From positions 1 through 64,000 of the IMG/VR virus record IMGVR_UViG_3300045996_001561: 64,000 nucleotides of DNA. One strand, written 5' to 3'. Position 1 is the stretch's first letter, and each line of letters starts with the position of its first letter. The translations under genes were made by a program, and so were the position numbers. Shown here piece by piece: positions 28,547 through 60,872 of this stretch. The notes under the pieces are model-generated. The model saw nothing but the letters and a program-made list of their open reading frames with translations, was not told where the DNA came from and ran no database searches. The DNA is from a virus.

Positions 28547-28678
28547 TTGACATACCCGTACGGCTATGGTAGTATAGCGGTACTAGGGTAGTACGGGGTA
28601 GCGGGTACCCCGGCCTAGCGGGTAGGAAAGGGGGTAGCCTATAGGGGGGTTGACAATCACGGTACGCTATGGTAGGGT
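28547..28678 (+). promoter_or_regulatory. Tandem early promoters (28547-28575, 28650-28678)
   Basis: TTGACA-N17(TATGG)-TAGTAT and TTGACA-N17(TATGG)-TAGGGT. Confidence 0.75.
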
Positions 28679-32711: not shown

Positions 32712-32765
32712 CCCTCGGGAACACGGATCACCCCCTGGAATTCCAGGGGGTGATCCTCGGTGCGG

Positions 32766-34034: not shown

Positions 34035-34063
34035 TTGACAATACCCCGCGTATATGGTACTAT
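34035..34063 (+). promoter_or_regulatory. Early promoter
   Basis: TTGACA-N17(TATGG)-TACTAT. Confidence 0.8.
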
Positions 34064-34113
34064 ACAACCAGTCAAGTGGGGGAACGGAAGCCCTCGGACG
34101 GAAGGAGGAAACA

Positions 34114-35037
34114 GTGATCAGGCCAGGAATGAAGATCACCCTAGAGAGTCTGGAAGAGATCGGGCCGTTCGCATGGCCGGGAGGGTACGTCAATACCTTC
34201 ATCGACCGGGATGGCAGCATCCTGTGCTTCGATTGCGCCAAGAAGGATCTGCAGGACGGAAACCCGTTCGGATCGATCGCGTACGCGGGGTACGAGGAAC
34301 GCGACCCCGAGGATGGCGACGTGATTTGCGATGGATGCGGACAGGAGGTCGATCCGGCGATTCGCGGTCGAGACGACGATCCCGCCACCGCCTGCCGCTA
34401 CCGCGTACGCGGGAAGGATGTTGCCGAGTTTCACACGAACGTGTGGGACGAGGTGATCACCGAGGCTCGGAAGCTGCGCGGTGAGGGGATCAGAAACATC
34501 GCCGTCGAGGAACGGGATCACGGGCCGGGGTTTGGGCCGGGACATTGGGTGGAGGTGATCTGGTCGTGAACGCATGGACAGGTCTGCGGCTCTCGGATGC
34601 GCGGCGACAACTGGTCGGCGTCAAATCCCAGATCGATCGCTCGATCCAAGCGGAGGACGACGACAACTGGCTCCGCGATGCGCCCCAAGATCCCGAAGCG
34701 TACGTGTTGCTCAATGAGATCGTGGGTCTCGTCAACACCCTCGATCAGAAGCTGCTTGACCTCGTCTTGAGAAAGGATCACGATGCTGTTCCAGAAGAAG
34801 AAGCCAGCCAAGAAGGGTCGGTCGCGCACATCATCGACCCGACCAGCCCCAGCGCGGAGGAACTCTGGGGTCAGTAAGATCCCTCGGGGGTACTACGAGA
34901 ACTTTGGCACCGAGTACCACAACACGCGCGGGATGGGGTCAACCTATATCGCGGCGGCAGGATCGGGATGTCTGGGGGTCTCATGGAAGTTCTTTCTGAT
35001 GGTGATGCTGATCGGGATTGTGATTGCCGCCTTCTGA
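34114..35037 (+). CDS. Early genes 34114-34569 (CxxC...CxxC), 34566-34877, 34783-35037 (C-terminal TM helix)
   Basis: AAGGAGG SD; coupled starts; zinc-binding and TM motifs. Confidence 0.55.
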
Positions 35038-35382
35038 GGGAGGCCCAGGCCCAGATCAGCACGGCCTGGATCGACGGCGACACGGACACCCTCGTCCAGT
35101 GGCTGGGCGCACTCGATCGCTCGATCCAGGCGAACGATCCACTGCAGAACGGTGCGGCCTTCCTGATCGAGTACACCGTGGCAGGGTTGGAGATCCTCCT
35201 GTTTGATCCCACGGTGCATGCATTCTATTGCACGGCACTCCTACCCCAATTCTGGCCCCAACGCCCCACAGAGGCCACGGAGCGCGTCCACAGCGGGGGT
35301 TCCGTGGATGACGACCGGCAACGTCGTGCCGACGTGCTGCGGTTTCGCATCTTCGGGCCGTGGGAAGGGATGCCGGGGGACA

Positions 35383-35555
35383 TTGACAAATACGCGGGGG
35401 TGAGCTACACTACGCAGGCAACTAAAGGGAGCTTCCTCTAAGCTCCTGGGGGGTCGACACCGGCGATGCCGGAACCACTCGATCCCCAAAGGTTTCCTCC
35501 GAGTTGCACCTTCCGTGTCGGGAACCCCGGTCGCAAGGCTGGGGTTCTTGGCGTC
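35383..35555 (+). ncRNA. Candidate small RNA (promoter 35383-35411, structured ~135 nt, terminator-like hairpin)
   Basis: TTGACA-N17-TACACT, then hairpins GGAGCTT/AAGCTCC and GGGGTCGA...TCGATCCCC, ending in GAACCCCGG-TCGCAAGG-CTGGGGTTC-TT; no SD-led ORF. Confidence 0.4.
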
Positions 35556-35602
35556 CCGATCACCCCCTGTGTATGTATGGGAAACTGGTTTCCATAATAC
35601 CC

Positions 35603-35631
35603 TTGACAATACCCGTATGGTATGGTAGTAT
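35603..35631 (+). promoter_or_regulatory. Early promoter
   Basis: TTGACA-ATACCCGTATGGTATGG-TAGTAT. Confidence 0.82.
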
Positions 35632-35680
35632 TGTCAGTGGTGAAGGGTACGGAACCCTTCGCACGGAAGGAGGAAACGCG

Positions 35681-36354
35681 ATGCTGCAGACACAGGTCGA
35701 TCATCAGTTTGGGGTGGGCGACCGGGCCATCCTGAAGCTGCGGCCGGGACGCAAGTTTGCCTACACCGGGTGGAAGGACGGCGATCTCGTCATCATCGAT
35801 GCGGTCAACTTCCGCATCAACGCGGACGGATCGACGGTCGTCTTTTACGCGGTCACCCACACGCCCGGTGGGGGGCACGTCCACGTCGGTGCCAATGAGG
35901 TGGTGCCGCTGCTCGATCGCCCCACACCCCCACAGAAATTCCTGATCTACGGCGGTGCGTACATCGCGCTGCTGGAGAAGGCGCTCGACGGCGGGCCATT
36001 CGCTCGGGCCATTCGCAACGCCACGCGCGCCGGAAACGATGCCTGCGGGTACGAGATCGTCCCGCGCAACGCCGAGGACGCCGCCCTGATCGCGCAGGCG
36101 GTGCGGGATGTGATGGTGCGCTGATGCCTGAAACCACCTTCCAGCACGCCTTTGCCATCGGGGATGCGGTCATGCTGAACATGCGGGAGACGAAGCAGCG
36201 CAACGGCTGGGTGAACGGCGAGACGGTCTACATCCAGACCGTCAGCTTCCGCACGGCTCGGGAGGGATCGTACACCTTCTACACCGTGGGTATGGAGCCG
36301 GTCAGCACGTCCGTGATCAAGGTTCGGGATATCGACGTGGAGGCGGCAACGTGA
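35681..36354 (+). CDS. Two tandem paralogous genes with small SH3/KOW-like domain (35681-36124, 36124-36354)
   Basis: HQFGVGDRAIL...GWKDGDLVIIDAVNFR...FYAV versus HAFAIGDAVML...GWVNGETVYIQTVSFR...FYTV. Confidence 0.6.
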
Positions 36355-37005
36355 ACATCTACGGACACACCTATCAGCAGCGCCGCGAGATCCAGCGGCA
36401 AGCGAATAAAATCTCGGCCCTCTGGCTCTCCCCTCGGGGCAAGCTCTATGGCCTGGGGGAGATCGAGGTCAAGGCGGCACGGGAGTATGCGTCCCACAAC
36501 GAGTACAAAGGCGATCCAGGGGGGTGGATTCGGCGCACCGCATCGGATCGGGTAATCACGCAGGGGTGGAGAAACTTCTTCCTCGCCCGCACGCGGATGA
36601 TCCTCGACTGGTACACCCAGCGCCTGACCGCCTTCCCCAGCTTCGCGGCCATGATCGATGCGCCCTCCACGTACCGGCCGACGCTGATGCAGACCTCGAC
36701 GGACTGGCGGTGCTGGCTGCTGGCCTTCCACTACGATCAGACGATGGCCTATCGGGGTGATCCGAGGCGGGTCTATCGTGGCTAGGGGGAGGGTTCGGCT
36801 CAAGCGCGGGGAGCAGCGCGTCACCACGTACCACCGGGGTGACGTCACGGCGATCATCAGCGGACGCAGCAGCGGGTACTACACCATGACGATCAACGGG
36901 TTCTTCGGGGGGATCGCCCACAGTCGGCATGAGGCCAAGTGGATGATCCTCTCGGGCCACTACGTCAACGGGCCTGCGCTCCTACGGAGGATTCCGCATG
37001 GATAA
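36351..37005 (+). CDS. Hypothetical genes 36351-36785 and ~36778-37005
   Basis: Coupled ORFs in the same operon. Confidence 0.55.
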
Positions 37006-37633
37006 GATCAACATCTACCGTGTGAATATCACCGGCGTCGATCAGGTGCTGTCCTTCAGCGCCCCTGACGCTCCGATGGCTCCGATCTGGGCCAGCGTGT
37101 GGCCCTCGGGGGTGGCACTGGCCTCGGTCATCTGGCGCGACCGGGAGCGATTTGCCGGGAAGAAGGTCTTGGAGATCGGGCCGGGTCTGGGGATCACCGC
37201 CACGCTCCTGGGGCTGGCCGGGGCTGAGGTCACCCTCGTCGATATCTCCCAATCCTGCCTCAATGTCGCGGCCTACAACATGCGGCAGAACGGAGCAGGG
37301 TACCCGGCCCATGCCATCGTCAGTGACATCCGTCACCCCACGCCGGATCTCCCGGGCCATCTTGAGCGTGGCGCATACGACATGATCGTGGGAGCCGACA
37401 TCCTCTATGAGGATGACGTGGTGGAGCCACTCCTGCGGACGATCAGTGCCGTCGACCACGCCTGGATCGCCGCCGTGATCCGGGAGCCGTTTGCCAAGTT
37501 CGCCTTCGATACCCCGGGTGCCGGGTGGACGATGCGTACGGAGAAGATCCGGGTTCCCATCCCCGACCCCATCGAGGGCACCGTTGACCCGGTCATCGTT
37601 CTTTACCTTGACAAAGCGGGCCGGGTATGGTAA
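36998..37633 (+). CDS. Class I SAM-dependent methyltransferase, Methyltransf_16 (protein-lysine MTase)-like
   Basis: WASVWPSGVALA, motif I KKVLEIGPGLG, post-I VTLVD, motif II YDMIVGADILYE (DxxY). Confidence 0.78.
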   Translation: MDKINIYRVNITGVDQVLSFSAPDAPMAPIWASVWPSGVALASVIWRDRERFAGKKVLEIGPGLGITATLLGLAGAEVTLVDISQSCLNVAAYNMRQNGAGYPAHAIVSDIRHPTPDLPGHLERGAYDMIVGADILYEDDVVEPLLRTISAVDHAWIAAVIREPFAKFAFDTPGAGWTMRTEKIRVPIPDPIEGTVDPVIVLYLDKAGRVW

Positions 37634-37636
37634 TAT
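37608..37636 (+). promoter_or_regulatory. Promoter
   Basis: TTGACA-N17(TATGG)-TAATAT. Confidence 0.78.
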
Positions 37637-45778: not shown

Positions 45779-45807
45779 TTGACATACCCGCGATGATGTG
45801 GTACTAT
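45779..45807 (+). promoter_or_regulatory. Promoter
   Basis: TTGACA-N17(TGTGG)-TACTAT. Confidence 0.78.
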
Positions 45808-50015: not shown

Positions 50016-50471
50016 ATGAGTAACACGATGCCACGACCGATGGACAGTGAGGCCGAGGCGCGCGTCGAACGCTGGCGCAAGCTAGAGGCCCAGGGCATCA
50101 ACCGCTCCGAGATTGCCCGACGCGAGGGCATCAGTCGGCAGCGAGTGACGGCCAAGCTGGGGCCACTCCCCGACCGGGGGGGTCGCAAGGAGAAGCGCAT
50201 CTACGTCCATGAGGGCGATTACCGCAAGGCGGCGGAAGTCGCCAAGAGCCTCGGCCTGCGGTTGCGGGCCGGGGAAACCTCGGGCGAGGGGTCGGTGAGT
50301 CTGCTCGTCGAGCTTATCGGTCGCGGGCAGCTAGTGGTGTCGCGGCGGACGGAAACCGCGAGGCCGAAGGAGGAAACGGATGGTGCGCCCACCGCACCAG
50401 TGGATGGAAGAGGCGATGACGCGACACCTGAGGGGGCTGGCAACGTCGTTCCAGATGATGCAGCGGCTTAA
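50016..50471 (+). CDS. HTH DNA-binding protein
   Basis: GINRSEIARREGISRQRV HTH. Confidence 0.7.
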   Translation: MSNTMPRPMDSEAEARVERWRKLEAQGINRSEIARREGISRQRVTAKLGPLPDRGGRKEKRIYVHEGDYRKAAEVAKSLGLRLRAGETSGEGSVSLLVELIGRGQLVVSRRTETARPKEETDGAPTAPVDGRGDDATPEGAGNVVPDDAAA

Positions 50472-57922: not shown

Positions 57923-58351
57923 ATGAAAGCAATCTCACTGTGGCAACCGTGGGCCAGTCTGGTTGCCACGCGCAACAAGTGGGTTGAAACCCGTTCGTGG
58001 CAAACCCCGTACCGTGGGCCGATCCTGATCCATGCGGCCAGGCGGAAAGTCACCCGAGACGAGCGAGAGTACTTCGAATCGGTCGCCGCGTTTCAGGACG
58101 CTATGCGAATGGGTGAGATCAGTTGGGATACCATGCCCTATGGTCAGATGGTTGCCTTGGCGGTTCTTGGCAGGGTCGTTCCGACCGAGGCAATTCGGGA
58201 CGCTATCCCCGACATGGAGTATGCCTTCGGGGATTACTCCAACGGCCGGTGGGCTTGGGTCTTTACCCGCATTGACCCCATCGATCCATTTCCCTACAAG
58301 GGAGAGCGCGGACTCTTTGACCTACCCTACGGGTTGACAATACCCCGCTAG
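57923..58351 (+). CDS. ASCH domain protein
   Basis: MKAISLWQPWASLV...KWVETRSW...YRGPILIHAA...KGERGLF. Confidence 0.88.
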   Translation: MKAISLWQPWASLVATRNKWVETRSWQTPYRGPILIHAARRKVTRDEREYFESVAAFQDAMRMGEISWDTMPYGQMVALAVLGRVVPTEAIRDAIPDMEYAFGDYSNGRWAWVFTRIDPIDPFPYKGERGLFDLPYGLTIPR

Positions 58352-59876: not shown

Positions 59877-60458
59877 ATGCACATGGATTCCAAGCGGTTC
59901 GACAGTTTCACGAAATCGATCGGTCGTCGTCCTGCCATCGCGCTTGGCCTCGCCGCCGTTCTGGGTGCGGTCGATGGGGCGCAGGGGAGACGGAGGCGAC
60001 TCCGCTCCCAGAAGCGTCAGTGTCGCGTGCAGGGGCATCCCTGTGAGGTCGGCGGGCAGGAGTGCTGCCCGGTCGAAGGCAAGGTCGTCGAGTGTCGCGT
60101 CACCGGCCCGGGAGCGGTCACGCGCTGTGCCGTCGCCGGTGAGCCGGATCCACCCCCGGTACCCCCAACCCCCGACAAGCCCGGGGATGGGAGTGGTGGT
60201 GGTGGAGACACCCCGGGGAAGAAGCGGCGACGACGCAAGAAGAAGGGCGACAAGGGTCGCTGCAAGGACAGTCGCGCCTCGGGACGCGGATGCGCGGTCA
60301 ACTGTCAGTGCAAGTCGAACAAGTGCCAGCGCGGGAAGTGCTGCGACCCGAAGGGCAACCACTGCCGGTCGGACAGCGAGTGCTGCTCTGGTCGATGCGA
60401 GTGGGTACACGCCCCGAACCGTCCCGGCAACCCGGACGAAGATCGGCAGTGCGCCTAG
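59877..60458 (+). CDS. Cys-rich secreted protein with MDxxRFDxxxxxxxRR leader
   Basis: MDSKRFDSFTKSIGRRPAIALGLAAVLG, basic linkers and repeated C-x5-CC-x3-C knottin-like units. Confidence 0.65.
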   Translation: MHMDSKRFDSFTKSIGRRPAIALGLAAVLGAVDGAQGRRRRLRSQKRQCRVQGHPCEVGGQECCPVEGKVVECRVTGPGAVTRCAVAGEPDPPPVPPTPDKPGDGSGGGGDTPGKKRRRRKKKGDKGRCKDSRASGRGCAVNCQCKSNKCQRGKCCDPKGNHCRSDSECCSGRCEWVHAPNRPGNPDEDRQCA

Positions 60459-60482: not shown

Positions 60483-60513
60483 AAGCGGGGGAGGGATTGC
60501 CCCTCCCCCGCTT
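60483..60513. terminator. Bidirectional terminator between convergent early and late transcription
   Basis: AAGCGGGGGAGGG-ATTGC-CCCTCCCCCGCTT. Confidence 0.75.
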
Positions 60514-60872
60514 TAGTGATTGACCAGCAGGAGGACGTAGACCGAGCGGCGCTCGATGCCAGCCGTGGTGTTGGCGTCAAAGGCGATGAAGAGGATGCAC
60601 GGCTCATGCTTCGGGAGCAGAGAGGCGTCGATCTTCTGCGAGGCCACCTTCGTCGGAGCGTCATACCCGATGGGGGCCGACTTCGGATCGGGGTCGATGA
60701 CGGTTCCGTGGCGATAGTGGACGACGCTTGCCGTCATGCCGGGAATGAGGATCGTCGCTCCATCGCTGACCGCGCCCGACAGCCCCACGGTGACGTTGCG
60801 GTTCTCGGTCGAGATCATCTCGACCAGGGGTGGCTCTGTCGATCGACTCCCGGCCCACCAGAGTGTTGACAT
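60513..60872 (-). CDS. Small beta-rich virion-associated protein (last late gene)
   Basis: GGAG SD; follows the large repeat protein. Confidence 0.55.
   Translation of the reverse strand: MSTLWWAGSRSTEPPLVEMISTENRNVTVGLSGAVSDGATILIPGMTASVVHYRHGTVIDPDPKSAPIGYDAPTKVASQKIDASLLPKHEPCILFIAFDANTTAGIERRSVYVLLLVNH

Follow-up and report, generated by a model that had tools for sequence, protein, structure and literature searches.

Several described systems lie close to the element reported here. Type I 3'-UTR-derived sRNAs of enterobacteria (DapZ, MicL) have their promoter within the 3'-terminal part of the preceding coding sequence, and Firmicutes produce C-rich sRNAs directed against Shine-Dalgarno (SD) sites, represented by RsaE/RoxS and by RNAIII-type UCCC loops. 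In T7-like phages, RNase III processing and stabilising hairpins are located between early genes. Known phage regulatory RNAs mostly target one neighbouring operon or host genes. In the C4 RNA of P1 and P7 and the CI RNA of P4, two short exposed segments pair with two nearby sites of phage mRNA, including the ribosome-binding site, and C4, a product of precursor processing, has a single operon within an immunity region as its target. The P1 C4 antisense RNA regulates Ant (PMC8201110).

The locus examined here belongs to an uncultured soil phage whose IMG/VR record comprises 79,344 bp, with an estimated completeness of 99% and a GC content of ~62%; the window, that is, the whole stretch of DNA analysed, is the first 64 kb of this record. 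Matches to TTGACA-N16-18-TAnnnT number 26 in the window, where 0.14 would be expected (per 128 kb of strand), and all but one of them (25/26) constitute a promoter family with a common extended -10 (TATGGTAnTAT or a close variant), mostly followed downstream by a short ACGGAA-loop hairpin and then a GGAGGAA(A)C Shine-Dalgarno module. The leader module, ACGGAAG ... CGGAGGAAACC, precedes the start codon in most promoter-proximal genes; the leader at 58334 reads ACGGAAG-CAACC-TCGGAGGAA, and GCGACTCGGAGGAA is present in the leader at 45779.

The module also occurs without a promoter at 50330-50382, as an ACGGAAA-loop hairpin followed by GGAGGAAAC and an ATG at ~50379, so the hairpin-SD module is not strictly bound to promoters; this copy falls within 50040-50471, which a crude gene call treats as one gene, and may represent an unrecognised gene start. 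In two unrelated IMG/VR viral contigs (53-56% GC), a GGGGGA-CGGAAA-TTCCCC hairpin and GGAGGAA come after a consensus promoter, which hints at ACGGAA-loop hairpins before SD sites outside this phage. At the end of the rightward arm, a 193-aa ORF (59877-60458, + strand) combines a twin-arginine-like or signal-like N-terminus with two cysteine-rich, knottin-like segments (e.g. C-x5-C-x5-CC-x7-C-x6-CC-x3-C), and is followed by a strong hairpin with a UUU tail at ~60490-60525.

The candidate element separates two co-directional units. Upstream lies an orphan gene (34983-35441, + strand, 152-157 aa) that closes the operon transcribed from the 34035 promoter. It is probably a real gene, with codon-usage log-odds of +0.27 to +0.38 per codon (antisense ORF, -0.34) and a GC1/2/3 pattern resembling that of the long genes, and it is listed as a 152-aa gene in the protein collection; its product has no homologue among 5.8 billion proteins and no Pfam or PHROG match. 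The 161 nt that follow (35442-35602, ahead of the 35603 promoter) carry no coding signal. A 43-aa coding role for 35466-35597 was ruled out by its codon score. The next unit opens with a family promoter and leader (35603-35680, + strand), in which an ACGGAA-loop hairpin is followed by ACGGAAGGAGGAAAC and an ATG at 35681. A near-perfect palindrome (TATGG-G-AAAC TG GTTTCCATA) occupies 35576-35597, just 5' of the -35 box of the 35603 promoter, and this promoter is itself palindromic over 35603-35637 (TTGACAATAC ... GTATTGTCA); both palindromes may be operator-like protein-binding sites. The total gap at the junction is 239 nt, against 22-85 nt at other co-directional promoter junctions, and whatever its role, the candidate is the sole place in the rightward arm with a large structured spacer between co-directional units.

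In the predicted fold, 35390-35574 is a compact, non-coding, tightly folded RNA domain with which the early operon 34035-35441 ends on its 3' side. Tentatively, and at something short of an even chance, we interpret this domain as a 3'-UTR-embedded anti-leader RNA that would pair with the phage's own leader modules and occlude their SD sites. Nearly as likely is that it serves as a terminator, processing site or stability element only, with no base-pairing role: its three hairpins and outer helix would terminate or shield the mRNA of 34035-35441 and isolate it from the 35603 unit, its anti-leader motifs would be the leftover of an inverted cassette in a genome rich in invertible promoter-leader repeats, and its TTGACA-N17-TACACT site would be a decayed or incidental promoter.

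The initial annotation credited the candidate with a promoter of its own, and all the features that it listed were recovered at the positions given. A sigma-70-type promoter-like site is present on the + strand at 35383-35411 (TTGACA at 35383-35388, a 17-bp spacer, TACACT at 35406-35411), agreeing with 10 of 12 consensus positions and with the family's core pattern (TTGACA, 17-bp spacer, TAnnnT), and its predicted start is at ~35416-35418. The family's extended -10, defined as (T/G)(A/G)TG(G/C) directly before the -10 hexamer, is missing: there is no TG extension, and GAGC takes the place of ATGG before the -10, with TATGG common to 25 of 25 family promoters. A PWM built from the 25 family promoters gives the site 0.8, at the top of background, against 32-56 for the family, placing it 26th in the genome, just above background sites (-0.4, -2.8); over the non-pattern columns it scores -19, compared with +12 to +36 for the family. 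By its motifs, the site is a generic sigma-70 match outside the promoter family, and it lies within the coding region, inside the last 20 codons of gene 34983-35441. Its off-family character and coding location argue for a terminator or processing element, while the promoter pattern, very improbable by chance at 35383 (0.14 expected), argues for an anti-leader RNA.

Gene-end promoters are normal for this phage. The 37608 family promoter (37608-37636) lies within the last codons of the methyltransferase gene (36998-37633), where its TTGACAAA is translated Leu-Asp-Lys and its -10 box provides the stop codon. The 35383 site has the same reading frame as the 37608 promoter but contains no stop and is read through.

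The stable hairpins described in the initial annotation were confirmed as three, together with a closing stem. Segment 35418-35560 has a minimum free energy (MFE) of -71 kcal/mol with a z of -4.28, and 0 of 200 shuffles were equally stable. The 6-bp inner closing stem (35418-35423 with 35502-35507, + strand; GCAACU/AGUUGC) has an unpaired probability below 0.06 on its 5' strand, and its 5' end coincides with the predicted transcription start. It encloses hairpin 1 (35427-35447, + strand; 8-bp stem, CCUCU loop; -10.1 kcal/mol, z -2.1), whose loop and stem are straddled by the TAA stop of gene 34983-35441 (35439-35441), and hairpin 2 (35449-35487, + strand; 9-bp outer and 5-bp inner stem; -21.6 kcal/mol, z -3.9). 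Hairpin 3 (35516-35553, + strand; -29.1 kcal/mol, z -5.7) has a 17-bp GC-rich stem and a GCAA tetraloop.

Hairpin 3 had been described as terminator-like, which holds for its stem and less well for its tail. The tail, UUCUUGGC, contains 4 U in 8, some of them lying within the extended stem, and a terminator scan did not call the hairpin; the GC-rich stem-loop of an intrinsic terminator is there, a U-rich tract directly after it is not. This phage's convergent junctions have GC hairpins of the same type, generally long and GC-rich with U-poor tails; that similar hairpins without clear U tracts stand at those junctions favours a terminator. A single hairpin would, however, be enough for termination, and the other co-directional junctions have no such element, which implies that a terminator is not generally needed there.

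An outer helix of 14 bp encloses the entire domain. Its 5' strand (35390-35403, + strand; core GGGGGUGA) falls within the promoter spacer, 5' of the predicted start, and its 3' strand (35560-35574, + strand) is UCACCCCCUGUGUAU, the core pairing being GGGGGUGA/UCACCCCC. The helix is present in both the MFE and the centroid structure of 35388-35575 (-93.7 kcal/mol) and raises the structural z from -4.3 for the inner domain to -5.79; its pairs form with a probability of 0.25-0.99 in most contexts and of 0.05 in one, and 11 consecutive pairs of this kind have a background frequency of 0.011. Since its 5' strand is the promoter spacer, the helix is possible only in transcripts from the upstream operon. 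The need for sequence 5' of the predicted start argues against a primary sRNA and fits a 3'-UTR element better, and this dependence on upstream transcripts, in a structure reaching a z of -5.8, also speaks for a terminator or processing element. The z values of the inner and the full domain are at the same time points in favour of the anti-leader RNA. Also in its favour, GATCACCCCCTG (35558-35569) is identical to one arm of the hairpin at the 32726-32755 junction. That hairpin is a perfect 14+4+14 palindrome at a convergent junction, and homology between the candidate's 3' part and the 32.7-kb junction is no longer than 12-13 nt.

Two antisense seeds flank the inner closing stem and are single-stranded in the predicted fold. 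The anti-SD segment GGUUUCCUCCG (35491-35501, + strand) is located at the three-way junction and is antisense of the leader module CGGAGGAAACC, and the linker CCUUCCGUG (35509-35517, + strand) is antisense of (C)ACGGAAG(G), the motif of the leader loops and of the position next to the SD. Both cores were said to be unpaired, and the predictions agree: UUUCCUCC (DNA TTTCCTCC, 35493-35500) and CUUCCGU (35510-35516) each have a mean unpaired probability of 0.72, with opening energies of 2.1 and 1.0 kcal/mol, respectively, so both are predicted to be accessible rather than buried in stems. AGUUGC (35502-35507), which sits between the two seeds, has further complements in the leaders at 58334 and 45779 (GCAAC/GCGAC).

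The complementarity of these segments to ACGGAAG and the SD, on which the initial annotation relied, is borne out, and in sequence the two seeds are an inverted leader module. The 12-mer 35491-35502 matches, letter for letter, the antisense sequence of the 31108(-) leader's SD module. The reverse complement of 35494-35516 reads ACGGAAG-GTGCAAC-TCGGAGGAA, and with the leaders at 45779 and 58334 there are 14-21 near-contiguous pairs. Only four + strand sites have TTCCTCC and TTCCGT within 35 nt of each other; three of them are the antisense of real minus-strand leaders, and the candidate, the fourth, is the only one in the rightward-transcribed arm. By generic local alignment, the reverse complement resembles the leaders weakly, and 26 of 772 background windows score as high.

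The order and strand of the seed pair are as expected of a minus-strand leader, consistent with a cassette leftover. The antisense SD (12-mer) and ACGGAAG (7-mer) are nevertheless perfect, although the adjoining minus-strand promoter and leader hairpin are unrecognisable. Such perfect motifs beside a vanished promoter and hairpin provide a weak argument for selection on the + strand RNA as opposed to neutral decay, because a neutral relic would not be expected to keep both once its promoter and hairpin were gone. Likewise, 161 nt of non-coding DNA with a leftover cassette would be unexpected in an otherwise tightly packed genome.

Pairing energies were computed with our own accessibility-corrected script, which combines duplexfold on 28-nt windows with opening energies. 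Against 25 leaders the candidate reached a mean of -10.9 kcal/mol, with 14 leaders at -10 or better, these nearly always through the anti-SD segment on the SD; the anti-SD segment is the site used in most of the predicted leader duplexes. Pairing is predicted to be strongest with the leaders at 28650, 28207, 31108, 30412, 34035, 35603, 45779 and 58334; the neighbouring 35603 leader is among the best, with a total of -12.6 kcal/mol in the leader set and -14.5 in the initiation-region set. The initial annotation named pairing no better than for random genes as a ground against its proposal, and here the answer depends on the comparison. Among initiation regions, those of 18 promoter-proximal (cassette) genes gave a mean of -10.5 kcal/mol with 89% of sites on the SD, against -5.2 kcal/mol for 103 internal genes (Mann-Whitney p 1e-7), and in this model the candidate RNA appears to fit cassette genes specifically, by way of their extended and exposed SD. 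Against control RNAs the margin is small: 22 dinucleotide shuffles averaged -9.2 +/- 1.3 kcal/mol against the leaders (candidate z -1.3) and 24 natural 140-nt sense-strand windows -7.4 +/- 1.7 (candidate z -2.0, one of the 24 being better). The candidate's total computed pairing energy is thus unexceptional for a GC-rich RNA and marginally better than that of the controls, a weakness that favours a terminator without base-pairing role.

Searches for relatives returned little beyond the phage itself. The Rfam search proposed in the initial annotation matched no family at gathering thresholds, the C4 antisense RNA included, and at E up to 10 it gave three matches only (E 1.3-6.3), far below the cut-offs; ARAGORN found no tRNA or tmRNA at the candidate. 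Neither the flanking ORFs nor the nearby methyltransferase have homologues among the 5.8 billion proteins. The primase-helicase has only 30%-identical relatives, on unrelated contigs (45-49% GC) that lack the cassette, and none in the genome collection. Searches of IMG/VR and metagenome contigs with the promoter and cassette DNA patterns gave single matches only, on unrelated, mostly low-GC contigs, and blastn against the phage collection gave no match. Soil metagenomes from four studies contain read-length contigs that are identical to the window, and contigs of this kind from four soil DNA runs showed no variants for covariation analysis; the sequencing runs listed with this DNA include none of RNA.

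Chance is excluded for the promoter pattern, the strong structure and the exposed antisense motifs in combination. The unusual spacer, the closing stem aligned with the predicted start, the exposed seeds and the uneven decay speak for an anti-leader function. For a terminator, processing or stability domain speak the promoter's off-family character, the outer helix with its need for upstream transcripts, the resemblance of hairpin 3 to terminator-like hairpins and the weakness of the energy statistics. The stand-alone, trans-acting sRNA originally proposed keeps its accessible seeds, but its promoter lies in a coding sequence and off the family, and the outer helix and operon-end-like hairpins tie the element to the upstream transcript; on these grounds, that it supplies the regulon's 'missing regulator' is something we infer rather than observe.

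As an anti-leader RNA, the domain could be delivered in two forms, as an RNA of ~135 nt that would start at the 35383 sigma-70-type site and end at hairpin 3, as the 3' UTR of the operon mRNA, possibly freed when the 14-bp outer helix is cleaved, or as both. Ribosome binding would be blocked by pairing of the anti-SD segment with the leaders' GGAGGAAAC(C), and CUUCCGU would provide a second contact, either with the SD-abutting ACGGAAG or with the hairpin loops that carry ACGGAA. Cassette-gene translation would as a result be dampened by feedback or in a timed manner. A caveat for this reading is that the logic of an RNA blocking nearly all of the phage's own strong ribosome-binding sites is not obvious without timing data.

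A more far-reaching form of the same proposal is doubtful. It describes a 'master' anti-leader RNA, born from an inverted leader module and served by both an internal promoter and the operon 3' UTR, whose two seeds would tune the translation of ~20 genes with the cassette of promoter, ACGGAA hairpin and GGAGGAAAC. If true, this would represent a self-targeting post-transcriptional regulon in a lytic-type phage and a new layout for phage gene timing, in which ~20 dispersed phage transcripts are addressed at their ribosome-binding sites, and it would offer a simple, portable leader/anti-leader part pair. Should the domain be a terminator only, the finding would be an ordinary one.

A cis-acting translational insulator is improbable. 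In read-through RNA, arising from the 34035 operon or the 35383 site, CCUUCCGUG would pair with CACGGAAGG beside the SD of gene 35681, leaving efficient translation only to transcripts from the 35603 promoter. The complementary 9-mers do lie ~150 nt apart on the same strand, and in the 35416-35720 fold they pair with a probability of ~0.9, covering the first two G of the SD; even so, most of the SD is unpaired (0.81-0.85), the stronger anti-SD segment is unused in that fold, and the CCUUCCGUG/CACGGAAGG pairing is gone in the 35300-35720 context. Hardly credible is a functional minus strand, on which a leader (ACGGAAG, GGAGGAAACC, TTG at ~35489) would serve an 82-aa gene overlapping the end of the + strand ORF: the 6-nt SD-to-TTG spacing resembles that of real leaders and an open frame of 82 codons follows, but the codon score of -0.34 per codon, against a positive one for the + strand ORF, speaks against the minus ORF as coding, no minus-strand promoter was found, the aligned region having lost both hexamers, and every neighbouring gene as far as 59 kb is encoded on the + strand.

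Read as an anti-leader RNA, the candidate resembles each of the systems introduced above in part. With DapZ and MicL it would share, in a predicted layout read from sequence, a promoter in the upstream CDS, a 3' hairpin common with the parent mRNA and an exposed seed for ribosome-binding regions; it differs in being phage-encoded, in having a seed that mirrors a leader module repeated in the phage itself and not host targets, and in having neither a clear U tail nor any sequence relation to them. Like the T7-like hairpins, it is a long double-stranded element between co-directional early units, at an mRNA 3' end, but where those are single irregular hairpins the candidate is predicted to be a multi-branched domain with an exposed anti-SD, and its cleavage is putative. 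The unpaired CCUCC-type motifs, of which the CCUCU loop of hairpin 1 is a second, would occlude many SDs in the manner of the Firmicutes anti-SD sRNAs; there is no homology to these, the principal motif is placed in the junction and linker and not in an apical loop, and the genes targeted would be the phage's own. Like C4 and P4 CI, the candidate is a small structured phage RNA with two short exposed segments, but unlike C4 it has no Rfam match, and its putative targets are ~20 dispersed leaders instead of one operon. If real, the candidate would constitute a new variation on these systems, a phage RNA that mirrors its own phage's repeated leader module.
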